This document shows positions 41,321 to 59,919 of a stretch of 64,000 nt of DNA, piece after piece (position 1 is the first letter of the stretch; the number at the start of each line of letters is the position of its first letter). The position numbers were made by a program, and so were the translations under genes. The notes below the pieces were generated by a model. The model was given only the letters and a program-made list of their open reading frames with translations, searched no databases and was not told the origin of the DNA. Source of the DNA: Candidatus Nomurabacteria bacterium (GTDB lineage Bacteria > Patescibacteriota > Patescibacteriia > HK-STAS-PATE-3). The stretch spans positions 320,001-384,000 of the forward strand of contig CP060223.1 of NCBI GenBank assembly GCA_023898465.1. Direction: 5' to 3'.

Positions 41321-41367
41321 GCTCCGACCGCTAGCTAGTATTCTACTTAGATTCTTGGTATTGCGTT

Positions 41368-42894: not shown

Positions 42895-42931
42895 ATAGAC
42901 TGCGGATAGTTGTCTATAACGAGAACTCTTT

Positions 42932-43297
42932 TTATTTCCGCAAAATCTTTTCCAAAGCTTTTCCTTTTGCTAGTTCATCCACCAATTTATCCAAATAGCG
43001 AATCTCTTGCATGAGGGGTTCCTTGATATTTTCCACCCTAATGCCACAAATTACCCCAGTAATAGCTTTCCGGGCAGGGTTTAGCTTAGGAGCCTTTGTA
43101 TAAAAGCTTGTTAGATCACTCTGTTGTTTTAGCTGTGTTTCAAGTTGTTTTTTTGAATATCCTGTTAACCACTGAATGGCCGTATCAAGCTCTGCTTTTG
43201 TACGCCCTTTCTTTTCCACTTTTGCAACATAGAGGGGATAGATGCTCGAAAAGGGCATGCTGTAGATTCGTGCTAGTTTTGTTTTAGATTGCTTCAT
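42932..43297 (-). CDS. DUF2200-like small cytoplasmic protein
   Basis: 121 aa, at the convergence point of the plus- and minus-strand gene blocks. Confidence 0.4.
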
Positions 43298-43313
43298 AGC
43301 TGAGATGGCGATA

Positions 43314-44252
43314 TTATTTTCCTAATTCCGTATGCGCAAGATTAGGATATCCACGTAACAATGACTCAGAGCTTTGTGGTGTTTTCCCAGCTAGTTGCAA
43401 ACCCTTCAGTTGGAGCACACCTGAACCACACTGCACATAGAGTGTGTGGTCCTGTAAAAAGGTTGCACCAGCTTTAGTTTGATCAGCCAGCAGTGCAACT
43501 TGTACATCTAAGAGTTTCATTTGCTGTGCATTCCAGGTAGTCCAGATGCCTGGCCAAGGATGCAAGGCTTGAAACTGATGATAAATTTGCTCAGCACTTT
43601 TTGTCCAATCAATTTTTCCATCTTCGCGCGTAAGAATTTGCGTGAGAGAAACTCCCTCATTTGTCTGCGGTGTAGGCTGTATTTCATCTGCCAGGTAGGG
43701 GAGGAGTGAATTTTGCAATAACTCAGCACCTTTTTTTGCTAAACGTTCATGGAGCTGTTCTCGTAAAATGCCCCCCGGAATTACATAGCTTTCTTGCTGA
43801 AGAATTGGGCCAGTATCGAGACCTTTATCCAGCAGCATAATACTTACCCCGGTTTCTTTTTCGCCATTTAATAGAGCTCCTGCCACAGGACTTGCTCCGC
43901 GATACTTCGGGAGCATCGACGGATGTACGTTCACAAAACCCTTTGGCGGGATATTAAGCACTGCCTCAGGAATAAGCTTGCCATAAGAAGCGACAATCGC
44001 TACGTCAGGCTTTGTTTCTTGTAGCCAATGTGCAAAAACTTCATCCAACTTCTTTGGTTGCATGATAGGTAATCCTAGCCGCTTTGCTAATACGGCAACA
44101 GGATTTGGTGTGAGGGTCTGGGCTCGACCTACGGGTTTGTCTGGCTGGGTGACAACGGCGATAATACGAAGCGCACCCCACTTTGCCAGAGGCTCAAGTG
44201 TCTGAGCTCCGAATTCACCTGAACCTAAAAAGACGACGGACGGCGTTTCCAT
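43314..44252 (-). CDS. fmt: Methionyl-tRNA formyltransferase
   Basis: 312 aa with a formyltransferase N-domain (…[13 protein letters not shown]… SLLP motif region) and a C-terminal beta-barrel domain. Sits downstream of def. Confidence 0.9.
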
Positions 44253-44731
44253 TTTTTGAGATCAAATGTTCCGTGAGTAATTCCCTTTGCTCTATCAATA
44301 AAAAGGCCGCCATTCAGATGGTCAACTTCGTGCTGAAAAATTCGTGCTAATAAGCCTTCAGCTTGCATTGTGTAACTTTCACCTTTTTCATCGTAGCCTT
44401 TGACGGTGAGCGATCTATGTCGTGGTACTGGGCCAAAAATTCCTTTAACCGAGAGACAGCCCTCTTCAACAGTTTCCTTGCGAAGCGATTTTTTCTGAAT
44501 AACAGGATTCATCATAACTATTGGCCCGTCTTTTGTTTCCACGATAATAATACGAAGATTTACGCCAACCTGAGGGGCGGCGATACCGATGCCATTCTCA
44601 GCATACATCGTTTCTAACATATCCTTGACCAGCTTACGAAAGGTGCCGGCCCGAATATCATCAAGCGTGACCGCCTTTGAGGGCTGTCGAATGCTTTCTT
44701 CATTGTACTGTGTGACGTGGAGATGGGCCAT
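44225..44731 (-). CDS. def: Peptide deformylase
   Basis: Motifs GIGIAAPQVG (motif I), EGCLS (motif II) and QHEVDHLNG (motif III). 168 aa. Confidence 0.92.
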   Translation of the reverse strand: MAHLHVTQYNEESIRQPSKAVTLDDIRAGTFRKLVKDMLETMYAENGIGIAAPQVGVNLRIIIVETKDGPIVMMNPVIQKKSLRKETVEEGCLSVKGIFGPVPRHRSLTVKGYDEKGESYTMQAEGLLARIFQHEVDHLNGGLFIDRAKGITHGTFDLKKWKRRPSSF

Positions 44732-44767
44732 ATGACTGCGCCAGTATACTCAAAATATGAGGAAAAA

Positions 44768-46609
44768 TCAAGTTGTGCTGGCAGATGGATCAAGGTCAAT
44801 CATCCATTCAGGTGGAAGCGATTGAAGTATTTTAGCTCGTTGTTCAGCCGTGCATTCTGGATCTAACTTAAGTAAAATTTGGACTAACTTTTTGTCTCCA
44901 TATACCCGGACTTGCGCTGGTAAGATTTCTTGTATAATCGTTGTATTATTTTTTTTCAGCACTGCTAAAATTGAAGCTTCAAGTTTATCAACTATCTCAT
45001 TTACTTGAAGTTGGTAACTAAGTTTAAGCAATCGGATACTCGGTGGAAAGTGAAATCGTTGTCTCTCCTTTAATTCATTTTTTAAAAAGCTTTGAATGGC
45101 AGTTGAGGAGAGGTGCTCAAGAATATATTGCTCTGTGTCGTAGCTTTGCACAATAAGTTTTTCAATAGCAGATTGCGCAAACTGTAGTGACCGAATGTGT
45201 TGATACACGGTTTCGGTAACATTCCAGCTCGATTGGGTGAGTTCACTCTCTAAGGAAAGTAGTACGGCTAGTTTAATTGGAGGAAGAGCTAAACGAAATA
45301 ATTTTTCCGTACCAATGAGAATATCAGCCTTTGCGAGATCTTCTTTTGTATATGCGCTTGATTTATCGATCGTTAGTATGTGCGCATCAGGGAAAAGTGC
45401 TCGTAAAGCTTTTGCGTTTCCCTCAATACCATAACCACTTGGTTTTATTTCTACACTTCGACATTGAGGGCACTGTAGGGGAATGTTTTGCGTGCGATTA
45501 CAATAAGGACAAAAAAGTCCACGCTCTTGGAGTTTGAGTGGAGTTGCGCATTGCTGACAGCTTGGACGCCAACCGCATTCTCGACAATTGAGACTGTGAT
45601 AACTACCACGTCGGTTTCGGAAGATAATTACTTTTTCCTTTTTAGCTAAGCATTCTTGTATAGCCTGCGTGCTTACTAAGGTGAGTATGCCCCCTGGTCC
45701 CTCACGTTGCTCATTTTTCATGGATGAAATTTGCGTAGTTGTCTGAGAGCCCCAACGCTCACTCCGGTGCCAGGAGCCGCTATATTTTTTTAGCATCTGC
45801 AAGGCGTCTAGACTGGGAATCCGACCCGTAAAAATGAGTCCGCTTCCATGTATTTTTGCTAGCTGTATAGCAAGATTTCGTGCATGGATATGCGGTTGGC
45901 GGTCGGTCTGCTTATACATATCTTCAAACTCATCAGTCAGAACAATACTTTGCAGGTCGGTAAACGGCTCATAAAGCGCACTTAGCGTGCCTAAGACAAG
46001 GAGATTGCCCTGGCGTATCCGTTCACGCGCTTGCCATTGCTCACTGCGGCTGAGCGAGCCGTGTAGGATAAGTGCTTGAAGCGGGAGAACTGCGTCGCTT
46101 TCTGCATAGTGCTCGAGACTTTGGATATCCGGAAAAAGGATAAGGATGCTCTGTCGGTCACGCTTCTTCAACAAGGCATTGAGATATTCCTCGTGAGCGC
46201 GAGGGAAATCATATTGAAAAAAAGTAAAAGAGAATTTCCCACTCTTTTTAACTTGCGCAGGTGTAGCGGAGAGTTTTTGTTCTTTTTTAGTGGGGGAGAG
46301 GAAGGCAGAGCGAAGCGCTAAGCCGACGGAGCTATGGTATTCTTTTGCTGCCCATTCAAGCAATGCTATTTGTTCAGACGTGAAAGCACCGGCCTGAAAA
46401 ACTTCCAGTATCGGCTGTATCGCTCGTGCAGGAACATCACTTTGCGACTTCATTTTTTTCACAATGCCAAAGACCTTCCTACGACGAAATGAAATCCGGA
46501 CTATTTGTCCAGGCTCGCAATGCATCCCCTCAGGTAAGGCGTAATCAAAAAAGCTAAGTTCTCTGGGGAGAGCCAGGGCGGGATAAACCTCGGCAAACTG
46601 TTTTTTCAT
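44768..46609 (-). CDS. priA: Primosomal protein N' (PriA) homolog with an apparently degenerate ATPase core
   Basis: 613 aa. It has the PriA-specific Cys-rich zinc-binding insertion (CRECGWRPSCQQCATP…CPYCN…CPQC) and the overall domain order. No GxxxxGK[T/S] P-loop is visible where Walker A should sit (…FQYDFPRAHEEYL…). The Walker B region reads TDEFED rather than DEEH. Confidence 0.75.
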   Translation of the reverse strand: MKKQFAEVYPALALPRELSFFDYALPEGMHCEPGQIVRISFRRRKVFGIVKKMKSQSDVPARAIQPILEVFQAGAFTSEQIALLEWAAKEYHSSVGLALRSAFLSPTKKEQKLSATPAQVKKSGKFSFTFFQYDFPRAHEEYLNALLKKRDRQSILILFPDIQSLEHYAESDAVLPLQALILHGSLSRSEQWQARERIRQGNLLVLGTLSALYEPFTDLQSIVLTDEFEDMYKQTDRQPHIHARNLAIQLAKIHGSGLIFTGRIPSLDALQMLKKYSGSWHRSERWGSQTTTQISSMKNEQREGPGGILTLVSTQAIQECLAKKEKVIIFRNRRGSYHSLNCRECGWRPSCQQCATPLKLQERGLFCPYCNRTQNIPLQCPQCRSVEIKPSGYGIEGNAKALRALFPDAHILTIDKSSAYTKEDLAKADILIGTEKLFRLALPPIKLAVLLSLESELTQSSWNVTETVYQHIRSLQFAQSAIEKLIVQSYDTEQYILEHLSSTAIQSFLKNELKERQRFHFPPSIRLLKLSYQLQVNEIVDKLEASILAVLKKNNTTIIQEILPAQVRVYGDKKLVQILLKLDPECTAEQRAKILQSLPPEWMIDLDPSASTT

Positions 46610-46612
46610 ACC

Positions 46613-47407
46613 CTAATGCGTTTCAAGAATACAGGTGCAATATCCAACCCCAAAAGGATACTCATAGGCCAAAATACGCCCGAAAAAATGTTTGCGATAT
46701 AAGACTCCGAGCAATAAAGAAAGCGGACCGAGTCCAAGCATTTTTGCTTCCTCCGCTTCTTCATTGCTGATGTGGAGAATTGCTTTTTCATCTCCCTGGA
46801 GTAATGCTTCCATGATTCGGGCATCAAGCGCAGAGGCCTTTGGTGTATACCCAGCCGGTGAGTTTTTCCCACGCTTATATGAAAGGTTTGCGCTGGCAAG
46901 CACGGCAACTCTTTCATTTGTCGCAAATATTTCTTCGCGAAGCATTTTACCAAATTCATACTGTGCTCGATTGTTTGTATTTGCCACCATTAAGGAAACG
47001 AGTCGAGCATTTGGTAGGTGTGGCATTGTTTGCATAGCGCTCAGTACAGTAGCGTAGTCAAGCTGCTGACCGCTTTGTAGCAGGAGAGGGAAGCGATGAT
47101 CCTCCGCTCGTTCTTTTAAGCGATGACTAAAAGCAATACTGCCAGGTACTTCTAACTGAGCGCTAAAGTCGCTAAATTCCTTTAAATCACCTTTAAGCGT
47201 TTCACCTACAGTGATTTCCCAAGCGGCAGGGATAGCGCCCTCGTGGGGGCTAAGGATAACCAATAGGTCTGGCTTGGCAGCATAAAGCTGCTGCGCCAAG
47301 GTATGATAAGCCTGGCGAGTTTTTTGCAGTTGATCGCTTGACCCAGGATTTGGCTCTTGGCTTAGCTGTGGAGGATGTGGGGCGATTGCCGCGAATACCA
47401 GCGACAT
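46613..47407 (-). CDS. Class III extradiol dioxygenase / Memo-like (LigB superfamily) protein
   Basis: 264 aa. The N-terminal …AAIAPHPP… and overall pattern suggest the LigB/MEMO1 superfamily. Tentative. Confidence 0.45.
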   Translation of the reverse strand: MSLVFAAIAPHPPQLSQEPNPGSSDQLQKTRQAYHTLAQQLYAAKPDLLVILSPHEGAIPAAWEITVGETLKGDLKEFSDFSAQLEVPGSIAFSHRLKERAEDHRFPLLLQSGQQLDYATVLSAMQTMPHLPNARLVSLMVANTNNRAQYEFGKMLREEIFATNERVAVLASANLSYKRGKNSPAGYTPKASALDARIMEALLQGDEKAILHISNEEAEEAKMLGLGPLSLLLGVLYRKHFFGRILAYEYPFGVGYCTCILETH

Positions 47408-47413
47408 GCGTGC

Positions 47414-48883
47414 TTATTCTTCAACTTCAAAGGTGATCTTTTCGCCTGTTGGGTGAATATCTAGGGCGCGATCAGTAGTCCAAATGAGATTACTCCATTT
47501 CAAACCCAGTTGGTCAAAAACGCCAGGACTTGGGATACCGCGTTTCACACCGTCGGTGATTAAGTAGACACCGTCGGCTCCAGGGGAGGTGACGATTTCA
47601 CCATCCTTGAATTTTACCGGATCACCAATTGGGTATTGCTCAAGCTCTGCACGACTGACCGTAGTCCATCGCTGATACTTGAAGCGTGACCGTAGAATTT
47701 CCTTTGAGTAAATAGGATGACGAAGTCCATTTTCTACATAGACAATGCCGCCACTTTCGCGTTCCTGAAAAAGTACGCCAATCGGGTGAACGCTGTCCAC
47801 CTTAATCTCATCGCCATCAGGATAGATGGAGAGATCATCGTAGCTAACATGAATCAGCTCTTCAGGATTAAATCCGAGCTGACGGAAAACCTCTCGTGAA
47901 CGAATTGGGCGCTTTTTGCCATCTGCTAAGAGGTAGACGCCACCGTCAGGGGATTGGAGAAGGCTGAATTCAGGATATTTAATTGGTGTTGCGATTGGAT
48001 ACGCCTCGAGGACGAGTGGGTCTACATCAATAACTTTTTCTGGGTCATAGGAGCTATAGAAGGCTGAGCGAGAATGGAAAGGATGCCGCTTGCCATCTTT
48101 GATTAACCAAATACCGGCCTCACCGCGAGCTCGGAGGAGTGCCCCATCAAAATAGCGGACACTAAACCACTCTTGCCAAATCTTGGCAAAGAGAGAGTTG
48201 CCACCCCATCGTGGATCTCCGCCACCATAGGCGCCTACGTAAGGGTTGTAGGTGTAGAGGGCGGCAGTTGCCTCATTATCAGGAGTGATTTCAATACCAT
48301 CAACTGTGGTTTTGGGAATGCCAACGCCCCAACCAGAAACAGTATAGCCGCGTGACTGCATATCAGCTAGATAGCCATTTTGAATGCGATTACCCGCAGA
48401 ATCAACCTGGGTGCCAAATCCGAAATAGGCTGGATCGCAGTCTCCAGGACAGCCATAGCCCAGCGCCCGGTCAATAAGTTCCTGTGATGCAGTTTTTCGG
48501 GCTCGGACAAGTCCTGATTCTTTTTCAATCAAAACTAGGTAAAACTGTGGACTTAGTCGATATTTTGCTGCAGCCTCGGCAATAAGTCCGGCAGCTGATT
48601 TACGCTCGCCCTGCGCGTTATAACCGCTCACATCTTTTAGTGCGCCGCCGAGAGTGTTTAAGAAACGCTGAATTCGCCCTTCATTCATTGACTGCCAGTT
48701 GAAGAGGTCAGTGTTATTCAGCAGGTTATTTTTGTTAAAACTAAACGCTAAACCAGCCTGGGGAAGGCTGATGGTGAGTATGGTCCCTATGACTGCGAGA
48801 AACAGCGTAATTTTTCGCAGATACGGGTTTGAAGTGTTCCGCATGGTAGATAGAAGTATACTGGTTTTTCTGCTATAGTGCAA
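47414..48883 (-). CDS. Secreted protein with an N-terminal domain of unknown function and four tandem ~60-aa C-terminal repeats (consensus about YL[IL]xDGK[KR]xP[IF]xSxxxFxxLGF)
   Basis: Signal/TM N-terminus. Repeats are visible by eye: …DGKRHPFHSRSAFYSSY…, …DGKKRPIRSREVFRQLGF…, …NGLRHPIYSKEILRSRF…, …DGVKRGIPSPGVFDQLGL…. Confidence 0.5.
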   Translation of the reverse strand: MHYSRKTSILLSTMRNTSNPYLRKITLFLAVIGTILTISLPQAGLAFSFNKNNLLNNTDLFNWQSMNEGRIQRFLNTLGGALKDVSGYNAQGERKSAAGLIAEAAAKYRLSPQFYLVLIEKESGLVRARKTASQELIDRALGYGCPGDCDPAYFGFGTQVDSAGNRIQNGYLADMQSRGYTVSGWGVGIPKTTVDGIEITPDNEATAALYTYNPYVGAYGGGDPRWGGNSLFAKIWQEWFSVRYFDGALLRARGEAGIWLIKDGKRHPFHSRSAFYSSYDPEKVIDVDPLVLEAYPIATPIKYPEFSLLQSPDGGVYLLADGKKRPIRSREVFRQLGFNPEELIHVSYDDLSIYPDGDEIKVDSVHPIGVLFQERESGGIVYVENGLRHPIYSKEILRSRFKYQRWTTVSRAELEQYPIGDPVKFKDGEIVTSPGADGVYLITDGVKRGIPSPGVFDQLGLKWSNLIWTTDRALDIHPTGEKITFEVEE

Positions 48884-49015
48884 GCGATGAGTGGCTTGCT
48901 AAAAATCAATTCTCAAGCAGTAAAACGTGCATGAAATGAGTAAGTTTGTTACTCAATACATCGTTTTGTCTACTCATCTGTTACGGATTAAGATGATGTT
49001 TCAATTGCAAAACCT

Positions 49016-49744
49016 ATGTTAAAGCTTTTTGGTGTACGTATTGATTCTCTGACAAAGGATGAACTGCGAAACAAGTTATTTGCGTTTCGTCAGAGCAGGG
49101 GACACATGATTGCCACGGTGAATCCGGAAATGTTGATGGAGGCTCGAGAAAATAAGGATTTGCAAAAAGCACTCGAGCAAGCTGATCTTCGTTTACCAGA
49201 CGGATTTGGCGTTATGCTGGCGGCAAAGTATCGTGGTCAGGCTTTAGCAGATCGACATCCAGGAATTGATATTATGAGCACCCTATTAGCACAGGCGGCC
49301 AAACAACAGGAGCGGGTGTATCTCTTTGGTGCTAAGTCAGGTGTGGCAGAAAAAGCAGCTGCTCGTCTGGTAAAAAAACATCCAGGCCTACAGATTGTCG
49401 GAGCAGAAAGTGGATTTCGTTTTTGGGGTATTCGCTTATCTGATCGTGAAATGCGTGATCGCATCAAACGCGCAAAACCAGACTTACTCTTCGTAGCGCT
49501 TGGTATCCCTAAGCAGGAGCTATGGCTAGCAAAAAATCTGCCACACCTTTCATCAGTGAAAATCGCTGTAGGCGTCGGTGGCGCTTTTGACGTTTTTGCC
49601 GGAAACGTACGTCGAGCACCTAGTTTCCTGCGAGTTATTGGCTTAGAATGGTTTTGGCGCCTCCTTGTACAACCATGGCGCTGGCAGCGAATTATCACTG
49701 CTACCTATCGTTTCTCACTGGCTGTAATTCGCGCGAAAGAATGA
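49016..49744 (+). CDS. WecB/TagA/CpsF-family glycosyltransferase (GT26; N-acetylmannosaminyl/glucosyl transferase-like)
   Basis: 242 aa. The conserved GT26 pattern is present (…LPDGFGVMLAAKY…, …LLFVALGIPKQELW…). Confidence 0.78.
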   Translation: MLKLFGVRIDSLTKDELRNKLFAFRQSRGHMIATVNPEMLMEARENKDLQKALEQADLRLPDGFGVMLAAKYRGQALADRHPGIDIMSTLLAQAAKQQERVYLFGAKSGVAEKAAARLVKKHPGLQIVGAESGFRFWGIRLSDREMRDRIKRAKPDLLFVALGIPKQELWLAKNLPHLSSVKIAVGVGGAFDVFAGNVRRAPSFLRVIGLEWFWRLLVQPWRWQRIITATYRFSLAVIRAKE

Positions 49745-50892
49745 AATTACCCAGCACCACATTTTCACAGTTAAGTATTTTACTCGGAGCAATACTGGGC
49801 GTGGGCATGTTTGGTTTGCCTTATTTGACAGCCCGAGCGGGTTGGACAAGTCTTTTACTTTGGTTTTTGGTAGCCGGGTTTGTTTTACTTATTGTTGGAT
49901 TTTGCTATATCCGCATTTTGCATAATAGTCAGGGCCAACACCGGCTACCCGGTTATGTTGAACAGCACTTAGGGCATCGTTGGAAACAGGCAGCAATTTT
50001 CACCACCACGATGAGTATTTGGGGCGCCTTGCTCGTATACGCTATCCTAGGCGGACAATTCTTGCATGATTTATTTGCGGATAGTGTGGGAGGTAGTTCG
50101 CTATTCTACCTCTTAGTTTTTTATGTGAGTGCGGCGGCTCTCCTTTATGTACAAGCAAAAACAATTGCTCGTGTGGAAATTTTATTGCTTTGTTTCTTCC
50201 TTGTGCTTCTGGCGATGTTATTTATCACAGGATCACGAACTGTGCAGTTTGATTTTTCTTCTTGGGATATTCGATACTTTATTCTGCCTTACGGCGCAGT
50301 ACTTTTTTCACTCTGGGGCATTGATGTGGTACCCGATGCAGCTGAGTTAGGGGAGAGGAGTGAAAAGCATATGCGTAAAACGTATTTTATTGCCCTAGCG
50401 AGCGCTGTGCTTATTTATTGCTTGTTTGTTTATGCAATACTTTCAATGAGTGGCATGGCGAGTAGTCGAGACGCACTTAGTGGCTTGGTTGGATTATTGC
50501 CACAAAAAGTTTTATTGTTCGGCTATATAATTGGTTTCATTGCCACCTTTACCTCTTTCATTAGTTTGGGAATGAATCTGCACAAGACTTTTCAATTTGA
50601 TTATGGTCAATCTAAGCACCTCGCGCTTTTTTCTACTTTAGCTTTCCCATTGGCCGTAGCTCTAGCTGGAGTTAGTGATTACTTAAATGTCATGGGTATT
50701 GTTGGATCGCTGGCAGTTGGTGCCGAGGCAATTATTATCCTGCACATGTATGATCGTTTTTCCCATGGCAGAGCACATCTCTATCGGCAGCGCGACTGGC
50801 TTACTTTTCTCACTCGTCCGCTCATGCTACTCTTGGGATTCGGAGTTATCTTAGGCATTCTTACCCCATTTTTATTGAAGTATTATGGCTGA
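49741..50892 (+). CDS. Amino-acid-transporter-like polytopic membrane protein (APC superfamily-like, ~11 TM). Internal ATG at 49741 (ATGA overlap).
   Basis: About 383 aa, all hydrophobic helices. N-terminal …LGVGMFGLPY… resembles aromatic/hydroxy amino-acid permease families. Tentative. Confidence 0.45.
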   Translation: MKLPSTTFSQLSILLGAILGVGMFGLPYLTARAGWTSLLLWFLVAGFVLLIVGFCYIRILHNSQGQHRLPGYVEQHLGHRWKQAAIFTTTMSIWGALLVYAILGGQFLHDLFADSVGGSSLFYLLVFYVSAAALLYVQAKTIARVEILLLCFFLVLLAMLFITGSRTVQFDFSSWDIRYFILPYGAVLFSLWGIDVVPDAAELGERSEKHMRKTYFIALASAVLIYCLFVYAILSMSGMASSRDALSGLVGLLPQKVLLFGYIIGFIATFTSFISLGMNLHKTFQFDYGQSKHLALFSTLAFPLAVALAGVSDYLNVMGIVGSLAVGAEAIIILHMYDRFSHGRAHLYRQRDWLTFLTRPLMLLLGFGVILGILTPFLLKYYG

Positions 50893-52321
50893 TTTGACGG
50901 CACCTCGAGTCCGATTTGCCCCTTCGCCAACTGGTGAGCTGCACCTCGGTGGATTACGGACCGCATATTATGATTGGTTACTTGCTCGCAAGTATGGCGG
51001 TACATTTGTTTTACGTATCGAGGACACGGATAGGACACGCTATGTAGAGGGAGCAGAAGAGCGCTTGTTAGCAACTCTCCAACAATTAGGCTTGCAGCCA
51101 GACGAGGGTCCGGGCCTGGGTGGTGAGTATGGACCATATCGTCAATCTGAGCGGCTAAGCATCTATCATGAGGCGATACAAGAGTTGATTGAGAAGAAGC
51201 AGGCATATTATTGTACTTGTACACCGGAGCGATTAGAAAAAATGCGTGCTGAGCAAAGCGCAAACAAGCAAGCTCCAGGCTATGATCGACATTGTCGTGA
51301 TCGTTATAATGAAAAACCAACTGAGCCGCATGTAGTACGTTTTCGCATGCCGGATAATGAAAAAATCACGGTAAATGATTTCTTACGGGGTAACTTAAAC
51401 GTTGCTACTAGCACGCTGGATGATTTTGTTATTCTCAAGGCTGACGGGTTTCCCACCTATCACAGCGCAGTGGTCATCGATGATCATGCTATGCAGATTA
51501 CGCACGTTTTGAGGGGCGAGGAATGGTTACCATCATTACCAAAGCACGTTTTGCTTTATCAGGCCTTTGGATGGGAAGCGCCGGTTTTTGTCCACCTCCC
51601 GCTCATCTTAGGTAAAGACAAGAAAAAGCTTTCGAAACGCCATGGCGCGCATTCAGTAGAAAAATTTTTGCAAGACGGTGTATTGTCTGAGCCTTTGTTA
51701 AACGCGATTGCTTTGCTGGGATGGCACGCCTCTGATGATCAAGAAAAATATACCCGCCAGGAATTATTAGCAAAGTTTTCACTAGAAGGATTGCAAAAAT
51801 CTTCAGCAGTTTTTGATCCGGAAAAATTAGCCTGGCTCAATGCGCAGTATATCAAAACAATGGATATAAAAGACTTGAGCGTGCTTGCCCGGCCTTATAT
51901 TTCTGATGTGATCGCTCCGCAATATCTTGAGCGATTAGATGAGGCGCTGCCACTCGTAATTGAACGAATTACACAGCTGAGTGAATTACCTGAGCGGCTG
52001 AGCTTTTTACAGAACGAGTTACACTATGATCAGGAAATCGTTCCCTTCAAAACACAGAGTAGGGAAGAGGCGCATGCCGCGCTTCAGCAAGATATGGATT
52101 GGCTGATGGCGTACAATGGTGAATGGGGTACGCAAGCTTTAGAAAAATTCTTCCATGAGCAAGTAGAAACTCTGGGTAAAAAAGTGGGAGAATATTTTTG
52201 GCCCTTGCGTGTCGCCTTGAGCGGCAAGAAAGCCTCACCTGGGACATTTGAGCTGCTGCATTTCTTCGGTAGGGAAGAGGCGCAAAAGCGCATTCAACAA
52301 GCATTGCAAGCGCTTCAATAA
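50885..52321 (+). CDS. gltX: Glutamyl-tRNA synthetase
   Basis: HIGH motif (PSPTGELHLGG), KMSKS variant (KLSKR) and an anticodon-binding C-terminal domain. 478 aa. Confidence 0.95.
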   Translation: MADLTAPRVRFAPSPTGELHLGGLRTAYYDWLLARKYGGTFVLRIEDTDRTRYVEGAEERLLATLQQLGLQPDEGPGLGGEYGPYRQSERLSIYHEAIQELIEKKQAYYCTCTPERLEKMRAEQSANKQAPGYDRHCRDRYNEKPTEPHVVRFRMPDNEKITVNDFLRGNLNVATSTLDDFVILKADGFPTYHSAVVIDDHAMQITHVLRGEEWLPSLPKHVLLYQAFGWEAPVFVHLPLILGKDKKKLSKRHGAHSVEKFLQDGVLSEPLLNAIALLGWHASDDQEKYTRQELLAKFSLEGLQKSSAVFDPEKLAWLNAQYIKTMDIKDLSVLARPYISDVIAPQYLERLDEALPLVIERITQLSELPERLSFLQNELHYDQEIVPFKTQSREEAHAALQQDMDWLMAYNGEWGTQALEKFFHEQVETLGKKVGEYFWPLRVALSGKKASPGTFELLHFFGREEAQKRIQQALQALQ

Positions 52322-52330
52322 TAGTTAGTC

Positions 52331-52385
52331 GCAGGCGAGGAGTTTATCCTCGCCGAATCCAAACGCCCAAGATAAATTCTTGGGC
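52331..52385. repeat. Left arm of a 55-nt inverted-repeat pair (double-hairpin element: GGCGAGGA-GTTTA-TCCTCGCC … GCCCAAGA-TAAAT-TCTTGGGC)
   Basis: Its reverse complement matches 54771-54824 at 52 of 54 positions. It lies 10 nt after the gltX stop. Confidence 0.85.
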
Positions 52386-52526
52386 TACGCGTGAATGAGT
52401 ATCTTCAGCAATAAATGCATTCACACAAGCGTAACAAGAGTAAGACTTGTGCGATATACAGTATGTTAACGGTTTTTTGTGAGGACTAGCCAAAAACTTT
52501 ATCTCGTGCTATAGTATATAGGCAAT

Positions 52527-53852
52527 ATGGGGGCAAAAAAGCTCAACCAAAAAGCAAAATATCTACGCATTAGTATATGCACCCTCCTGGTCGCAATAAT
52601 CGCGGCTGGCGGCTTTTTGTCATTCTCATGGCAGCAATTAGCTGGTATTGCGAAAGCTCAAGACGTTAGTATTCCAGATGAAACAACAACCGAGCTCATT
52701 AATCTCAATAGTGATATTGAAAATAAGCGCGATGAAATTAATGACTTAGAAAAGAAGAGTCAAGCCTACCAGCAAAATATTAACAAGAAACTCCAGCAAT
52801 CGCAGTCAATTGAAACGCAGCTTTCCACTTTAGAGGATCAAATCGCTCAGACGGAAACCGATCTCGAAAAAACCAATCTAGAGGTTGAGAAGTATGGATT
52901 AGAAATACAGCAAGTAGAGGGATCAATAGCCAAGCGAAATGAAGAAATAGATGCGGCAAAAGATCGAATCGGTGAGTTTATTCGAGTCATGCATCGCAAT
53001 GATAGTCGCACATATTTAGAAATTTCTTTACTACATGATAACTTCTCGAGTTATTTCATGCAGGAACGGGCGGTAAAGGATATTGAAAATGAAACCAAGA
53101 AGGCGCTTGATCAGCTGCATGTGTTAAAACAGGGTCTAGAGGATGATCTAGATACCTTAACTGACAAAAAGCGTGAACTCGATGAGGCAAAAACACGTTT
53201 GGAAAGTACTAAAGATGCGCATGCACAGGAGTTAGAATACCAACAGTTGCTTTTGACTCAGGTGCAAGGGGAGTCAGGTGAATTACAATCATTGCTTGAT
53301 GAGGTCCAACAGCAGGTTAATCAGGCCACTTCCGAAGTTTCTGTACTTGAGAATCGTTTCCGCGACCGTCTCTCTGAGGAAAATATCGATTTAGATACTT
53401 TACTGCAGGCTCAAAATGACTTTATTTGGCCAGTAAATCCAACTCGAGGCATTAGTGCTTATTTCCATGATCCTAGCTATCCTTATCGCGGCTATTTTGA
53501 GCATAACGCTATTGATGTCCCGACGCCTCAAGGCACTCAAGTTCGGGCTTCCGCCGATGGTATAGTAAGTATTGCTCGTGACACAAATTGGACCACCGAC
53601 AGCAGGGGACGACGAATTCCAGCCTATAACTATGTTTCCATCATTCACGGTGGCGGTATTTCAACGGTCTATGGCCACTTAAGTGCGGTATATGTGTCGC
53701 CAGAGCAATTTGTCCGCAAAGGAGAGGTGATAGGATTAAGTGGGGCAACGCCTGGCACGGCTGGTGCTGGACTCTTTACGACCGGACCACACTTGCACTT
53801 AGAGTTTCGACTTAACGGTATTCCAGTTAATCCTTTGAACTACTTGCCGTAG
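52527..53852 (+). CDS. Membrane-anchored coiled-coil M23-family (LytM-domain) peptidoglycan endopeptidase, EnvC/NlpD-like architecture but with an intact metal site
   Basis: N-terminal TM helix, about 250 aa of heptad-rich coiled coil, then a C-terminal M23 domain with H-x(3)-D (…HNAIDV…) and HLH (…GPHLHLEF…) zinc ligands. Confidence 0.8.
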   Translation: MGAKKLNQKAKYLRISICTLLVAIIAAGGFLSFSWQQLAGIAKAQDVSIPDETTTELINLNSDIENKRDEINDLEKKSQAYQQNINKKLQQSQSIETQLSTLEDQIAQTETDLEKTNLEVEKYGLEIQQVEGSIAKRNEEIDAAKDRIGEFIRVMHRNDSRTYLEISLLHDNFSSYFMQERAVKDIENETKKALDQLHVLKQGLEDDLDTLTDKKRELDEAKTRLESTKDAHAQELEYQQLLLTQVQGESGELQSLLDEVQQQVNQATSEVSVLENRFRDRLSEENIDLDTLLQAQNDFIWPVNPTRGISAYFHDPSYPYRGYFEHNAIDVPTPQGTQVRASADGIVSIARDTNWTTDSRGRRIPAYNYVSIIHGGGISTVYGHLSAVYVSPEQFVRKGEVIGLSGATPGTAGAGLFTTGPHLHLEFRLNGIPVNPLNYLP

Positions 53853-53887
53853 CATTCTTGTGTGAATGTTGTCGAATTGCCGCAGGC

Positions 53888-53915
53888 CTTTACCGGGCCT
53901 GTTTTGTTAGGTACT
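53888..53915 (+). terminator. Rho-independent terminator after the M23 peptidase gene (CAGGCC-TTTACCG-GGCCTG followed by TTTT)
   Basis: A GC-rich hairpin plus a T-run about 35 nt after the stop codon. Confidence 0.55.
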
Positions 53916-54014
53916 ATGTTCATACTGCAACATAGGGAGAGGAGGGCTTCCCATTGTTGGCGTAAGCTACTCCTGCATATTGACAAAGGACTGTAGAGCA
54001 TTGGAGGGTTAACC

Positions 54015-54668
54015 ATGCGTTGGAAGAGCATGTCTTACCTGGCCTTCTTGATGGCCTTCATCGTCAGTCTCGGTACGTGGACGGGCGCTCAGGCAGCTGA
54101 GGAAGAGGTCTGTGATCCTCAGCCGGTGATCATGTGCACTTCGGCCTACTATGACTTCATGAGGCTCCTCACGGACGGTAACTGCTCGACTGTGGTGACC
54201 GAAGGGGAGAGCTCCTGGACCTTCAATTCGTGGCCACTGCTGTACTGCACGCAAGTGCCGGCAACGCTCAACTACGATGACTACTTCAGCACCGTGTCGA
54301 GTACGATCGAGCTGCGCGACGAGCATCCTTCGTTGAGCTTGATGAGTGACGGCGAGTGCTTCGAGGTCTACGCGGCGTGTCAGGGAGGTGCCTACGGCGT
54401 CACGGTGATGTATACGCACGCTGATGGATCGATGAGCTACGTCGGACAGCCGGGTGATTGCCCAGTCCAGATCAGTGGCGCCATTGCACTCAAGTTCGAC
54501 GGCGAGGCGCGCGAGCTCTACGTCGACGAGGGTTTTCGGACTCAAGTCTATCGAGTCGATGACCCACTTGGCTCACAGCACGCTCGAACCCTTCTACCGG
54601 ACCAGGCCGATACCCAAAGCGATAGGGTAGCGACCGACCAGTTCGCTGAAGTGGTATCCACGCGCTAG
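54015..54668 (+). CDS. Cysteine-rich secreted hypothetical protein with a signal peptide. The gene has strikingly high GC and GC3 relative to the rest of the window.
   Basis: 217 aa with N-terminal signal peptide MRWKSMSYLAFLMAFIVSLGTWTGAQA and 8 Cys in the mature part. Codons are dominated by G/C-ending triplets. A long spurious antisense ORF (54009..54545) is typical for GC-rich genes. Confidence 0.6.
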   Translation: MRWKSMSYLAFLMAFIVSLGTWTGAQAAEEEVCDPQPVIMCTSAYYDFMRLLTDGNCSTVVTEGESSWTFNSWPLLYCTQVPATLNYDDYFSTVSSTIELRDEHPSLSLMSDGECFEVYAACQGGAYGVTVMYTHADGSMSYVGQPGDCPVQISGAIALKFDGEARELYVDEGFRTQVYRVDDPLGSQHARTLLPDQADTQSDRVATDQFAEVVSTR

Positions 54669-54675
54669 TTCCCAG

Positions 54676-54728
54676 CTCGGAGCAAGTTACTTACTTAGGT
54701 GAGTAGCAGCTCCGAGCTTTCTTTCTTT
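54676..54728 (+). terminator. Terminator-like long hairpin after the GC-rich gene (AGCTCGGAGC … GCTCCGAGCT, 10-bp stem) followed by a TTTCTTTCTTT tract
   Basis: A perfect 10-bp stem with a T-rich tail. Confidence 0.5.
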
Positions 54729-54770
54729 AAAGAAGCTATTACAAGCGAGAAGTATAATGCATCTACGCTA

Positions 54771-54824
54771 CCCAAGAATTTATCTTGGGCGTTTAGATTC
54801 GGCGAGGATAAATTCCTCGCCTGC
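54771..54824. repeat. Right arm of the inverted-repeat pair (inverted copy of 52331-52385)
   Basis: CCCAAGAATTTATCTTGGGCGTTTAGATTCGGCGAGGATAAATTCCTCGCCTGC is the reverse complement of the left arm except at 2 positions. Confidence 0.85.
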
Positions 54825-54981
54825 TCTTAGAGGGGAGCATAACCTGTGTAACTAATATAGTGTCGCACAATATATCTTCTACGTCGCTATAACCATATAA
54901 TGCAATAAAAGGCCTATTCCTAGCATCTAGGCAGATAGTGCGAAATTAGCCTCTATTTTGCTCTCTACGGCGTCTTTTACC

Positions 54982-56022
54982 CTATTTTAGGTATACACGC
55001 TCTCCAAATCTCACATCAATATATCGTAAGCTTTCTGGATGTACGCTCGGGTCTTGCAAAGTTCGCTGTAGTTTATTGATCTGCGCTTCAATATCATCTT
55101 TGAGGACATATACTTGCCAGCCAGCTTCGGTGACGATATGAAATTCAGGTGTAAAATATAGCAGCTGTTGTATATCACATGTAGACTCAGGCAGATCCTC
55201 GCTTTCATTTGTATTCGCAGCTAGATTTGTATTCGTTGTTTTATTTGTGTTACTTATGACATCTGAGTCATCCTCTACAGGTATATTTGCCTCAGAAGGA
55301 GTATTCACGCAATCAAGTTGAGGTATAAGTACTTTTTGCATAGAAAAGTCACTCGGAAAGCTATCAGTAAATTTTTGTATCCCGTGTAAGATGTTTGCAT
55401 CTATTTTTTGACTCCCCACATCAACACTCAACTCATTCTCATCTTCAATACGCAATAAGTTAAGCTCCTCATCATTATTTTGTATTTCTGAAATGATAAA
55501 GCCATTTTCATCCATGAAATATTTTTTTTCGCGTGACTGCCAAATATATTTTGCTGATTTTGCTTGGATGCTGATAGTGAGTGTATTTGGGAAGTCTTTT
55601 TGGATGGAGATATTTTCTACTCCTAAGATGTTGGCTATCGCCTGTTCAAGATGGTCGCCAAACCATAAGGGTCGTAAAATAAAATAGTTTTGGTTGGGTA
55701 TGACAAGTAGTGTTCGTTTACTTAACAACACATCTACTTGCGTGGCAATTTGCTGCTCCAATTGAGTAGTGCTATCGATGAGCTCGATGTGTATTGATGA
55801 GATGCGGAACATTGGCGAGTTCATAATAACGTACCAGAGCAACCCAAATACAAGCACTTGGAGAATAAGAAGTGTGCGGTTCCGCCAACGAGATTGGAGA
55901 CGGGTTTGTTCGCTTGGAAAAAGTGGATTACTACGATGCGAATAATGCACCTCGCTCGTAGCAGGCTTCGGGAGTGTTCGTCGTTTCCGACGTGAAAATA
56001 TACGAGAAAGGAATCGCCGCAT
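54982..56022 (-). CDS. FtsQ/DivIB-like cell division protein (POTRA-domain type), tentative
   Basis: 346 aa with a basic N-terminus, a single TM helix (…LLILQVLVFGLLWYVIM…) and then a periplasmic domain with a POTRA-like start (…FRISSIHIE…). Confidence 0.45.
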   Translation of the reverse strand: MRRFLSRIFSRRKRRTLPKPATSEVHYSHRSNPLFPSEQTRLQSRWRNRTLLILQVLVFGLLWYVIMNSPMFRISSIHIELIDSTTQLEQQIATQVDVLLSKRTLLVIPNQNYFILRPLWFGDHLEQAIANILGVENISIQKDFPNTLTISIQAKSAKYIWQSREKKYFMDENGFIISEIQNNDEELNLLRIEDENELSVDVGSQKIDANILHGIQKFTDSFPSDFSMQKVLIPQLDCVNTPSEANIPVEDDSDVISNTNKTTNTNLAANTNESEDLPESTCDIQQLLYFTPEFHIVTEAGWQVYVLKDDIEAQINKLQRTLQDPSVHPESLRYIDVRFGERVYLK

Positions 56023-56032
56023 AACTTCCCTA

Positions 56033-57154
56033 TTATTTCACAATGTGTCGCGGGAGCAAAGGATGGATGTGGGTAATTACTTCATAGTTAATAGTGCCCA
56101 TATCTTTGGCAATATCCTGTGCGCTTAGTTCCTCTCTCCCCTGCCGGCCGATAATAACCACTTCGTCTCCAGCTTTTGCTTGAGGAATTAGTTCACAATT
56201 TACCACACTGAGATTCATGGATAGGCGGCCTAAAAACTTTGCTACTTTCCCTCGCAGCAGTACCTGACCATTATTAGAGAGTGATCGTTGCAGGCCCTCA
56301 AAATACCCGATAGGAAGTACAGCCACTCGCATTTTTTTCTTCACTCGATAGGTGCGATCATATCCGATTGTCGTGCTAGGCGGCAGTGTTTTAATTGCGA
56401 GCACTCGAGTTTTCCAACTTAGCACTGGACGAAGTTTGAGGTCTTGTATTTTTTTTAGCTCCGGGGCTGGCCACAAACCATACATGCCTAAACCTACTCG
56501 CAGCATGTCATAGCGCATCTTAGGATACTTCAGTACCGCGGCGGTGCAGCTAATATGACGAATAGCTTTTTTATCAAGTACTACCTGTAACTCTTCAACA
56601 CATTCCTGGAAACGCTTGTTTTGCTGAAGTGTAAAAGACTTGTTATTACTTTCTGATTGCGCAAAATGAGAAAACACGCCATTCATTTTTAGCGCTGGTT
56701 TTGCTAGCAGTAGTTTTTTTAGTTTTGCGAGCTCGTTTGGCAGGAAGCCGATCCGGCTCGTGCCAACATCAAGCTTAAGATGAAGAGAGAGGCGTTTTTG
56801 TAAGCTTGTAGGTAGGGCGCGTATCTCTTGGAGTTGGGCAAACGAGTGCAATACAAGGGAGATATTATTTTGCACCGCAGCACTCGCGCTCTGAGTATCC
56901 CAGTAGCTTAAAACAACAATTGGTTTGCGTATGCCCAGAGCTCGTAACTCTAGCGCTTCGTCAAGATTCGCCGTACCAAATACGTCCACGTTGTTTTGAA
57001 GTATCTTTACTACCTCAGGTGTTCCTAGTCCGTAGGCGTTTGATTTTACCACTGCCATAAGCTTCGCATTTCCGCTGATACGTCGAAAAGCCTTGGCATT
57101 ATGTACAAGCGCCGATTTACTCAGCTCAATCCAAGTAAATTCTGTTTTAGGCAC
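56033..57154 (-). CDS. alr: Alanine racemase
   Basis: PLP-lysine motif (AVVKSNAYGLG) near the N-terminus and a typical two-domain length of 373 aa. Confidence 0.88.
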   Translation of the reverse strand: MPKTEFTWIELSKSALVHNAKAFRRISGNAKLMAVVKSNAYGLGTPEVVKILQNNVDVFGTANLDEALELRALGIRKPIVVLSYWDTQSASAAVQNNISLVLHSFAQLQEIRALPTSLQKRLSLHLKLDVGTSRIGFLPNELAKLKKLLLAKPALKMNGVFSHFAQSESNNKSFTLQQNKRFQECVEELQVVLDKKAIRHISCTAAVLKYPKMRYDMLRVGLGMYGLWPAPELKKIQDLKLRPVLSWKTRVLAIKTLPPSTTIGYDRTYRVKKKMRVAVLPIGYFEGLQRSLSNNGQVLLRGKVAKFLGRLSMNLSVVNCELIPQAKAGDEVVIIGRQGREELSAQDIAKDMGTINYEVITHIHPLLPRHIVK

Positions 57155-58442
57155 GGGGGCGAAGTTCTTTTAGGCCAACAATTTTCTGCAGAGCCTTAGG
57201 TATCTTTACGCTGCCGTCTTTCTGCTGATGATTTTCCAGGAGTGCAATCAGGATGCGCGGTGAAGCGATGACAGTATTGTTTAGTGTGTACACAAATTGT
57301 CGCTCGCTCCCCTCTCCTTCGCCTTTCGTTTTGATGTTTAATCGGCGGGCTTGCCAGTCGCTGAGGTTTGAGCTGGAGTGCGTTTCTCCATACCCTTGTC
57401 GGCCCGGCATCCATGTTTCAATATCAACCATGCGGCGTTTACCAGCCCCCATATCCCCCGTCGAAGTTTCAATGAGTTGATATGGTAAGTCGAGATGCTC
57501 TAACATTTTTTGAGAAATATCCAGCATGGTAGTAAACCATTTTTCTGCTTCAGCAGCCTCAGGTTTACATAGCACGACTTGCTCAACTTTTACGAATTCT
57601 CTCACACGATAAAGTCCCTTTGTGTCTTTACCATAGCTGCCAATTTCTTCGCGATAACATTGACTAATACCGCAGAGGAGTTTTGGCAATTGCACTTCTG
57701 GAATAGTTTCATTTGCGTAGTACGAAAGTAGTGCAGGCTCAGAAGTGCCGGCTAAATATAGCGCCTCGCGATCATCCGCTGGAGTTTCACTGCCTGGACT
57801 TTGTAGTGAAAAGATTTCATTTTTCCCAAAAGGAAAATGACCACTTCCGTAAAGCGCAAAACCCTTAATAGCAGTTGGAGGTGTCATTAAGGTAAAGCCA
57901 GCTTTTTGCATTTCCTGCAAGCCCAGTAAAAGAATTGCCTGTTGTAAAAGCACAGCTTCGTTTTTTAAATAGTATCCACGGAAGCCGGCTACTTGAGCGC
58001 CTTTCTCTAGATCGAGAATATCCAGAGCAAGGCCGAGGCTAATATGATCCTTTGCTTCAAAGGAAAATGTCTTTGGTGTGCCGACTTGCTTGATCACCTT
58101 ATTGCTACTTGCGTCGGGGCCAATCGGAGCTCCTTCCCAAGGTATGTTTGGCATGCGCCAAAGCATTTCATCACGCTCGAGAGTTAACTCTTTTAATTTT
58201 GCTTCCAAGTCCTGCAGCCTTTGCTTAAGCTCCTTTGCCTGAGTGATCTGGGCAGGATCAGATTGTTTGCCTTGCTTAGCCAGTGCATTTCTCTCTGCTC
58301 GTACAGTTTCTGTTTCGCTGAGCAGTGCGCGATACTCTTTGTCGACTTGAAGAAAGCGATCAAAGTCAATTGATACCCCCTTGTTTTTTATGGCCTCGCG
58401 TACAATGTCCTGATTAGCCAAAATGAAAGAAGTATCAAGCAT
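57147..58442 (-). CDS. serS: Seryl-tRNA synthetase
   Basis: N-terminal coiled-coil arm plus a class II catalytic core with motifs 1-3. 431 aa. Confidence 0.93.
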
Positions 58443-59919
58443 GATCGTTGCTCCGTAAGCTTGGAAAAAGTATACATTCTCGCAGACTGTTTGCGTTGGT
58501 AAGTATGGCAGTTAATCGATCAATACCAATGCCGATACCAGCGGCTGGTGGCATGCCATACATAAGCGCCTGCACATATTCCTCATCATGTGGTTGTGCC
58601 TCATCATCCCCTGCTTCACGCATGCGCTGTTGCTCAAGGAATCGGTCGCGCTGATCAATTGGATCATTTAACTCGCTGAATCCATTTGCTAACTCAGTTG
58701 AGGCAACTACCAATTGGAAACGTTCAACATAGCGCTTATCATCCGGCTTTGCTTTTGCGAGCGGAGAAAGCTCAATTGGATGATCAATGATAAAGATGGG
58801 ATTGATGCATTCAGGACGAACGAATTTCTTAAAAATGCTATCAATTATTTTTCCTCGTCCATCTGACGCTGCTACCTCGACGCCGCGGCGTTCAGCTTCA
58901 TGGGCTAAGGCATCCCGCTCTGGGAAGCGCTCAATATCCAGCTTAGCGTATTTGCGCACTGCATCACGGAAAGTCATTTGAGGGATTTCTTTTGGCCAAG
59001 TAATATGCTTATCGCCAAAAGCAAGCGTGTCACCCAGTTCAGTTGCTTTCAAAATGTTTGTGAAGAGCTCCTGGGTCATCTTCATTAAGGCTTGGTAATC
59101 CGCGTAGGCTATATAAAATTCCACCTGAGTAAATTCAGGGCTGTGGTCACGATCAATTCCCTCATTACGGAAGCAGCGACCGATTTCGTATACTCGCTCA
59201 TAGCCACCGACCAGCAGACGTTTTAAATAAAGCTCAGGCGCAATGCGTAAGAACAGATCCTGATTAAGTGTATCGTGATGAGTAATAAAAGGCTTAGCGC
59301 TGGCTCCTCCAGCCTGTCCTTGGAGAATTGGTGTTTCTACCTCTAGGAATTGTTGACCATCCAAAAAGCTTCGAATCGCGCTTATAATTTTTGCCCGCGT
59401 GCGAAATCTATTTTGAACCTCGGGGTTAGTTAAGAGATCAAGCTCTCGATGCCGAAGTCTTGTTTCAGCTTCACTTAAACCTTTGCGCTTATCAGGCAGT
59501 GGGTAAAGACTCTTACTCAGTATCTGATATTCCTCAACCTGAATAGTTTTTTCTCCTCGTCGCGTAGTACCCAGAGTGCCAGTCAGGCTGACAAAATCAC
59601 CCAGGTCTACCAGGCTGGTCCACTTTTCAAAAGCGTCATCCCCCACCTTATCTTTTGCGAGCGAGAGTTGTATTTTTCCACTCTCATCTTCAATATCACC
59701 AAAGCAGAGCGTGCCATGCAGTCTAATAGCTCGCAGTCGTCCATAAAGTGTTACTTTTGTTTCCGCGGTAACAAGTGCATCAAAATCAGAAAGTAGCTCT
59801 CCTACTCTATGCGTTCTGGAATTTTGTGCTCGAGCTGGATACGCGAAAAGCCCTTGGCTCTCCAGAGTGGCCCGTTTTTCCTTCCTGAAACGATGCTGGT
59901 CAAGTTCTTGTGTTGGCAT
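58435..59919 (-). CDS. lysS: Lysyl-tRNA synthetase (class II). The ATG at 59919 (MPTQELDQ…) is chosen; the track start at 59943 is also possible.
   Basis: N-terminal OB anticodon-binding domain and class II motifs (…FRNEG… motif 2, …GIGIDRL… motif 3). Confidence 0.92.

Follow-up and report, generated by a model that had tools for sequence, protein, structure and literature searches.

In this study, we analyzed a stretch of 64,000 nucleotides (nt) from a Candidatus Nomurabacteria bacterium of the Patescibacteriota (contig CP060223.1, positions 320,001 to 384,000 of the forward strand), hereafter called the window, with a focus on a pair of near-perfect inverted repeats between gltX and a convergent ftsQ-like gene. 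The two repeat copies, here called the left and the right arm, enclose a gene for an M23 peptidase and a gene for a cysteine-rich (Cys-rich) protein, and a short conserved site resembling the recombination site dif lies between the right arm and the ftsQ-like gene. A first-pass annotation of the window had described the arms and the enclosed genes as a 2.5-kb mobile cassette. Comparison with related loci speaks against this description. We tentatively regard the arms as two copies of a lineage-specific palindromic repeat, and the dif-like site as the more promising lead of the two.

Genes and features of the locus

The first of the two enclosed genes (52527..53852, plus strand; USN53881.1) encodes a coiled-coil M23 peptidase of the EnvC/LytM-like type and is syntenic in all relatives. 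It has a GC content of 43.5% and is followed on the same strand by an intrinsic terminator (53882..53909; GCAGGCC...GGCCTGT followed by TTTTGTT). The second gene (54015..54668, plus strand) encodes the Cys-rich protein of 217 amino acids (aa) with a signal-peptide-like N-terminus, has a GGAGGG ribosome-binding site and a GC content of 58.4%. Its own strong intrinsic terminator (54676..54728, plus strand; −33 kcal/mol, z −6) runs into TTTCTTTCTTT. These gene calls, the M23 domain, both terminators and the GC anomaly had been given correctly in the first-pass annotation, and the repeat is indeed unannotated. With 58% GC for the Cys-rich gene versus 46% for the window and 43.5% for the M23 gene, the M23 gene appears native in composition and the Cys-rich gene foreign-looking.

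The Cys-rich protein belongs to no Pfam or PHROGs family, and a search among 1.84 billion representatives returned only the protein itself and two weak matches to repeat proteins, with no real homologue. Its AlphaFold model is uninformative (predicted local distance difference test score, pLDDT, 39). Judged by these sequence-based searches, the protein appears to be a lineage-specific orphan.

The label of the ftsQ-like gene (USN53883.1) has modest support. In a search with a profile of seven members, the top of the PDB list consisted of FtsQ structures only (E = 0.004), and of these members, two match one NCBIfam FtsQ model and one matches a second. A homologue search with the protein returned its own cluster only and no closer relatives. 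The ftsQ-like gene is followed by a terminator-like hairpin, and the right arm is located between this hairpin and the terminator of the Cys-rich gene.

As already noted in the first-pass annotation, no transposase or integrase is present in the window. None of the about 55 open reading frames (ORFs) encodes a transposase, an integrase, a recombinase or an invertase, nor was a Y1 transposase found, and all ORFs with a family match are housekeeping genes.

Structure of the inverted repeat

A repeat search in the window confirmed the near-perfect inverted arms (52331-52384 and 54771-54824), which are 54 nt long and 96% complementary, with 52 of 54 positions matched and 2386 nt between them. The pair is the top inverted repeat of the window by a wide margin, the runner-up having 38 nt at 71%, and each hairpin sequence occurs at two sites only when up to 3 mismatches are allowed, against 0 expected from 100 shuffles.

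The repeat core of the left arm (52331..52385, plus strand) consists of GCA, a first hairpin H1 (52334-52354; GGCGAGGA-GTTTA-TCCTCGCC, 21 nt, plus strand), a 10-nt spacer and a second hairpin H2 (52365-52385; GCCCAAGA-TAAAT-TCTTGGGC, 21 nt, plus strand). The repeat core of the right arm (54771..54824, minus strand) is the reverse complement of the left arm, with H2 at 54770-54790 and H1 at 54801-54821 on the minus strand. One of the two core mismatches between the arms is located in a loop and the other in the spacer. Folding of each arm, for which a structure of two hairpins had been proposed before, indeed yielded two stem-loops, each with an 8-bp stem and a 5-nt loop. The energies were −32.6 and −31.6 kcal/mol for the two arms, and the fold z-scores were about −4.9 and −4.6 with the strands taken as read from the outer genes. 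Perfect 8-bp stems with a loop of 3-8 nt were found in only 7 places in the 64 kb, 3 of them inside the arms; in the remaining hairpin of the arms, the outer pair is a G-T.

The outer edge of the repeat is abrupt. A weak outward continuation of the similarity, which had been suspected before, is therefore not supported, and the similarity instead runs inward beyond the core for about 22 nt, to 52406 and 54749, at roughly 75% and with four indels. These inner tails comprise 52386..52406 on the plus strand in the left arm, with about 75% gapped similarity to its counterpart, and the diverged, gapped stretch 54749..54770 on the minus strand in the right arm. Their similarity gave a p of about 0.002 in an anchored test and was not significant in an unanchored local test (p = 0.22).

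Both arms had been placed exactly at the 3′ ends of genes. The left arm begins 9 nt past the gltX stop codon, but the right arm lies 157 nt from the stop codon of the ftsQ-like gene, with the conserved recombination-type site in between. The same arms in the same arrangement were found in independent Logan assemblies (L001, and L002/L028/L063, which represent one contig). Because these assemblies derive from other sequencing runs, the arm pair is not an assembly artefact. An Rfam scan of 51500-55500 (E up to 5) returned nothing credible for the arms or for the conserved dif-like motif. The idea that the arms are DNA uptake sequences was rejected, the 7- and 8-mers of the stems not being enriched in the window.

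Comparison with related loci

Related loci were gathered through homologues of gltX and M23. The gltX identities to the window were 74% (L022; run SRR32105342), 57% (L025), 55% (L023), 54% (L024/L033), 50% (L030) and 49% (L029), and the M23 identities were 63% (L029) and 71% over the C-terminal half of the protein (L034). GTDB holds no close species, the best gltX match there being 45-52%. In every locus spanning the region, the genes for WecG, a permease, gltX and M23 follow each other on one strand, while the opposite, convergent strand of the relatives carries the ftsQ-like gene, in part ddl, then alr and serS. Four relatives (L023, L025, L029 and L033) have contigs that extend to alr, and in all of them ddl is located between the ftsQ-like gene and alr. 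The gene is absent from this position in the window (54982-57154) and was not found elsewhere in the 64 kb.

All seven related loci that keep the order of gltX and M23 facing the ftsQ-like gene lack the arms, and all seven also lack the Cys-rich gene. Since M23 occupies the same place in the same orientation in relatives without arms, M23 appears to be a resident gene of the site and not cargo. The first-pass annotation had itself named the comparison of syntenic loci as a check that could refute cassette mobility, and its outcome is against such mobility, as the syntenic relatives have M23 without the repeats and without the Cys-rich gene. Likewise, arms and genes are not present or absent as a whole unit; the relatives keep M23, and only 53853-54824 and the left-arm region are extra. 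The former description of the contents as secreted cell-wall-active cargo fits only the resident M23, whereas the actual newcomer is the orphan Cys-rich gene, which had rightly been considered foreign-looking and is a lineage-specific addition.

The extent of the added DNA was deduced from a block (CTTAG)GGGGAG, more fully CTTAG(A)GGGGAG, after the M23 stop codon of the relatives. It follows directly (within 6 nt) in L023, L030, L025 and L034 and 10-22 nt past the stop codon in L029 and L033, with the conserved palindromic motif next. In the window, the block starts at 54825 immediately past the right arm and belongs to an ancestral spacer block (54825..54861, plus strand; TCTTAGAGGGGAG...) that is homologous to the relatives' sequence after the M23 stop. 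Because the post-M23 block of the relatives resumes at 54825, the extra DNA in the window is 53853..54824 (972 nt, plus strand), a lineage-specific insertion delimited by junction comparison with L023, L029, L030, L033 and L034. The insertion-free junction would read M23 stop joined directly to CTTAGAGGGGAG. The insertion contains the terminator now used by M23, the Cys-rich gene, the terminator of that gene and the right arm, the outer end of which lies within about 2 nt of the distal junction. No blastn match indicating a plasmid or phage origin of the 972 nt was obtained.

The spacer between gltX and M23 has a length of 205 nt in the window versus 59-132 nt in L023, L029 and L030, in which the two genes are directly adjacent. 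Strong hairpins unrelated to the arms occur right after gltX in relatives (twin palindromes in L029; a 19-bp stem in L025, L022). Because such unrelated structures are found at the same place, a need for a 3′-end structure after gltX is suggested.

Other DNA has entered the spacers around M23 in the relatives, namely an IS481-like DDE transposase gene between gltX and M23 (end of L024 and L033 1-738, two contigs overlapping by 22 nt), an ORF of 236 aa of unassigned family in L025 (3394-4104), and an ORF of 233 aa of unassigned family between the dif-like site and the ftsQ-like gene in L034 (862-1563). Different insertions are found there in different relatives, which makes the spacers flanking M23 a hot spot where insertions recur within a deep clade. 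This context of the gltX-M23-ftsQ-like spacers, an insertion hot spot with a conserved dif-like site adjoining, outweighs the repeat pair.

Upstream of M23, the extended −10 motif TGCTATAnT is common to the relatives' spacers, and in the window a promoter-like site with an extended −10 (TGCTATAGT; 52487..52515, plus strand) lies about 12 nt before the ATG. M23 therefore seems to retain its ancestral promoter. The conserved motif (window 52497-52529 and the homologous spacers of L023, L029 and L033) ends about 11-15 nt before the M23 start codon, which suggests that the M23 mRNA is leaderless or has a very short leader.

Between the window (52527-53852) and L029 (10001-11308), M23 shows 62.9% identity, while the adjacent gltX shows 48.7%. 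For all other genome pairs, M23 identity minus gltX identity ranges from −9 to +3 points. A swapped-in xenologous M23 and uneven rates may explain this discordance equally well, and the divergent M23 catalytic domain of the L023/L025/L024 clade is compatible with rate heterogeneity.

Nature of the repeat arms

We favor the reading that each arm is a copy of one short palindromic repeat, which is lineage-specific and of the repetitive extragenic palindrome (REP) or bacterial interspersed mosaic element (BIME) type, and that the arms are not the ends of one mobile element, although we give it somewhat less than an even chance of being correct. The first-pass annotation had come close to it with its fallback of REP/BIME-like arms that attracted an insertion. 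H1 and the reverse complement of H2 are related within an arm, 14 of 21 positions being alike with the loops GTTTA and ATTTA, and each arm can therefore be read as a head-to-head doublet like those in BIMEs or REPINs (REP doublets forming hairpins). Moreover, the divergence between the arms is uneven, with 2/54 in the hairpin core versus about 8/24 (mismatches plus gaps) in the inner tail, which argues for copies of a constrained unit over one recent segmental copy.

Like the REP, BIME and REPIN elements of Proteobacteria, the arms consist of hairpins of about 20 nt that are arranged head to head with a short spacer, are intergenic and near gene 3′ ends, and form sequence-discrete, species-specific units. 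REP-type families are usually species-specific, and such elements are known to stabilize the 3′ ends of mRNAs and to be preferred places of insertion and rearrangement. To our knowledge, such repeats have not been described in Patescibacteria, the candidate phyla radiation (CPR). The repeat pair is of a known general kind in an unusual host and marks where foreign DNA entered. As a structured repeat it belongs to a group of bacteria in which such repeats are hardly catalogued, but it matters little alone.

According to the favored reading, the repeat unit would be made up of two related hairpins head to head, with a conserved core of 54 nt and a looser inner tail, and one copy would lie in the spacer before and the other in the spacer after the resident M23. 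A process that acts in trans or by recombination and is not encoded in the window may have spread or copied the unit. In the left copy, which would be transcribed as the 3′ end of the gltX mRNA, the two stable stem-loops could make transcription pause or end and could shield the mRNA, upstream of M23's own promoter. The right copy, located between two terminators, probably has no role as RNA; its palindromic DNA may either have come with the foreign DNA or have supplied its junction.

Several results weigh against a REP/BIME-like repeat. A repeat family should have more members, and no further arm copies were found in the remaining 61.5 kb of the window; the number of two copies per 64 kb argues only against a very high copy number of about 50 or more per Mb. 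A pattern with fixed stems and free loops and spacer had 0 matches in 185,579 GTDB species genomes. In JGI metagenomes, the arm pattern had one match, a chance match inside an ArsC-like coding sequence. IMG/VR yielded 0 matches for the doublet, 0 for H1 and three bare matches to the H2 palindrome without surrounding similarity. None of these three collections includes the source genome. The known elements have tens to hundreds of copies versus two known here, and the two hairpins of the unit share only the 14 of 21 positions given above. The REP hallmark GTAG adjoins H2 in the left arm only, the right arm having CTA, and neither a REP-associated tyrosine transposase (RAYT) nor another enzyme was found in the window. 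Furthermore, a good T-tract in the direction of gltX is missing after either hairpin pair, so that a terminator role is putative. Finally, two copies just 2.4 kb apart, one of them at a foreign-DNA junction, also fit a one-off local duplication.

Such a one-off inverted duplication, arising when the foreign 972-nt DNA was joined downstream of M23, is a possible but rather unlikely origin of the pair. Illegitimate recombination or template switching during replication would have copied the hairpin sequence after gltX in inverted orientation, leaving arms without a function. Palindromes favor template switching, and this explanation agrees with the presence of two copies only, inverted and 2.4 kb apart, with the outer end of the right arm within about 2 nt of the distal insertion junction, and with the lack of copies elsewhere in the GTDB, JGI and IMG/VR scans. 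However, even divergence is expected of a single recent copy, whereas the identity drops from 96% in the core to about 75%, with four indels, in the adjoining 22 nt, and the unameliorated GC content of the Cys-rich gene argues for a recent event.

It appears improbable that the arms are protein-binding DNA sites, in which the two related dyads of each arm would serve two dimers and the inverted pair would act at the DNA level, for example as a polar fork barrier like the Ter sites IRI/IRII of Bacillus subtilis or as an operator pair near the dif-like site. The B. subtilis repeats IRI and IRII, which are inverted and about 50 bp long, lie near the terminus and contain two adjacent protein-binding dyads each, and the arms resemble these RTP-binding sites as an inverted pair of about 50 bp with two adjacent dyads each. 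The perfect 8-5-8 dyads, two per arm and related but not identical, are in line with protein binding, as are the location of the right arm, 37 nt from the dif-like site in a gap that seems to be untranscribed, and the sign change that both GC skew and gene orientation undergo at this place in the window and in L029. On the other hand, no relative has the arms, even though the dif-like site and the gene order have been kept. No candidate binding protein, be it RTP- or Tus-like, is encoded nearby, L023 and L033 do not show the skew change, and, unlike in IRI/IRII, the arms stand 2.4 kb apart, enclose genes and lie on the same side of the dif-like site, with the terminus only suggested by skew. 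A bolder proposal, which we likewise consider improbable, would be that a hairpin-ended, enzyme-less cassette of a kind not described before, in the recombination-prone, dif-adjacent spacer, exchanged the resident M23 for a xenologous copy and brought the orphan secreted gene, by which the 63% identity of M23 to L029 versus 49% for gltX would be explained, or that a polar protein-binding pair gates replication or recombination.

The reading of the arms as terminal inverted repeats of a non-autonomous cassette, either like a miniature inverted-repeat transposable element (MITE) or composite, which carried M23 and the Cys-rich gene and was moved in trans, has become very improbable. Near-perfect inverted repeats of 54 nt with an abrupt outer edge would suit it, and inverted repeats bracketing cargo without a transposase between them are also known from MITEs and MITE-flanked composites. 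In addition, the M23 identity of 62.9% to L029 versus 48.7% for gltX is an outlier among the genome pairs and would allow for a xenologous swap of M23, although this discordance may be rate heterogeneity, as seen in the divergent catalytic domain of the L023/L025/L024 clade. The cassette is largely refuted by synteny, since seven loci without arms have M23 at the same position, in the same orientation and with the same promoter motif, and M23 is native in composition. No target-site duplication was found, the flanks being ...AGTTAGTC before the left arm and TCTTAGAG... after the right arm with no abutting direct repeat, and no transposase is encoded in the 64 kb. A second copy of the arms was not found anywhere in GTDB, JGI or IMG/VR. 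Unlike MITEs, the pair has no target-site duplication and no other copies found, one 'cargo' gene is ancestral, and the arms are hairpin doublets, not transposase-binding terminal repeats.

Least probable is an invertible segment with the arms as crossover sites at which a recombinase or RecA would flip the 2.4-kb M23/Cys stretch. The inverted repeats would be long enough for this, but no recombinase is encoded in the window. The window agrees in orientation with three Logan contigs, of which one was reported only as being in a similar place; the other two, whose DNA was read, also have the two arm-specific mismatches of the window. M23 presently points in the ancestral direction, and flipping would switch nothing obvious given that both genes have their own terminators.

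The dif-like site beside the right arm

The dif-like core site GTCGCACAATATATCTTCTACGTC (54862-54885, plus strand) reads GTCGCACAA/TATATC/TTCTACGTC and is framed by an outer dyad (54857-54890). It is located 37 nt beyond the right arm and is not part of the repeat, to which it is also unrelated. Across the relatives, the consensus GTCGCACAA/TATATC/TTYTAYGNC is an almost invariant imperfect palindrome. The window and seven relatives contain one copy per locus at the same place between M23 and the ftsQ-like gene and in the same orientation, for example at 12820-12843 in L023, 5621-5644 in L025, 11348-11371 in L029, 9291-9314 in L030, 2181-2204 in L033 and 845-868 in L034. The site is nearly invariant while the flanking proteins are 30-60% identical, and the outer dyad co-varies. 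In the window, only one match to GTCGCACAATATATC was found with up to 3 mismatches, and a scan of IMG/VR detected the site in 25 contigs versus fewer than one expected.

The layout comprises two 9-nt arms and a 6-nt center, with a dyad of 7/9 in the commonest form (right arm TTTTACGAC) and of 5/9 in the window. By sequence, this corresponds to the architecture of a core site for tyrosine recombinases such as dif. No Xer gene is present in the 64-kb window, and no description of a dif site in Patescibacteria was found in the literature that was searched. A reading of the motif as part of a small ORF (MSRTIYLLR... in L023 and L025) was rejected; the window, L029 and L030 lack the start codons, and the motif is therefore not coding.

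A peak of the cumulative GC skew is located at about 54.9-56.1 kb of the window, where the genes switch from mostly plus to all minus strand. Both a skew peak and such a switch of gene orientation are expected at a replication terminus. Directly at the site, the GC skew changes sign in both the window and L029, whereas it becomes weaker without a clear change of sign in L023 and L033, and L025 gives no support. The dif-like site may thus be located at the terminus.

The dif-like site is a more promising lead than the repeat pair, for which we consider the interest low to moderate. If confirmed, it would provide a handle on chromosome dimer resolution and Xer-dependent elements in a phylum with almost no genetics, and a precise landmark for finding prophages and islands in Patescibacteria.

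A further observation near the site was made by comparison of window positions 40885-59076 with another strain (L028/L002 from SRR12358676; L001 from SRR14234116). The sequences are 100% identical over 14.1 kb up to 55005, followed by 28 single-nucleotide polymorphisms in the next 4.1 kb (0.7% divergent). This switch occurs within about 120 nt of the dif-like site. It reflects either the boundary of a recombination event or sweep, or a change of strain within one of the assemblies.

Integrase-less elements at the dif-like site in other Patescibacteria

Six IMG/VR contigs of 9-11 kb (L043, L048, L050, L052, L055 and L058) carry two copies of the site in direct orientation and 5.2-5.9 kb apart, one of them full and the other a hybrid sharing only the left arm and the center. 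In L052, the contig examined, the copies (2062-2085 and 7494-7517, direct orientation) bracket genes for a Zot-like ATPase, a rolling-circle Rep protein and a DUF2726 protein, so that the element is inovirus-like, and it contains no ORF large enough for an integrase. Its host flank is murG followed by the ftsQ-like gene with the element just downstream, and L043 has the same flank. In L043 and L047, the ftsQ-like gene is followed by the site and by Zot- or coat-like ORFs. Such paired full and hybrid sites are the signature of Xer-dependent integration at a dif-like site, as known for integrative mobile elements exploiting Xer (IMEX). These contigs are mostly small and of the human-metagenome style. 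For oral Saccharibacteria, prophages have been detected with an inovirus detector among other tools (10.1101/2020.04.29.069278).

The locus in the window shares several features with IMEX at dif such as CTXphi and other filamentous phages that use host XerCD. It lies beside a dif-like core site, related hosts have direct full and hybrid copies around integrase-less inovirus-like elements of 5.2-5.9 kb, and foreign DNA accumulates next to the site. In contrast to IMEX, the insertion with the Cys-rich gene has no two flanking sites, 37 nt of ancestral spacer lie between this insertion and the site, and the arms are unrelated to the site and inverted, not direct. An IMEX origin of the Cys-rich insertion was therefore rejected, as there is no second copy of the site in the window and the ancestral spacer intervenes.

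In three contigs of tailed phages, the site adjoins the gene for the small terminase subunit (L035 3523-3546, L054 6223-6246 and L059 8877-8900). There, the copy may be a phage attachment site (attP) for integration by host Xer, or it may have another role.

Outside of the locus, the window contains two tandem paralogues of cofactor-independent phosphoglycerate mutase (iPGM_N and Metalloenzyme domains) at 3578-5158 and 5146-6744, which are located after pgk and eno.

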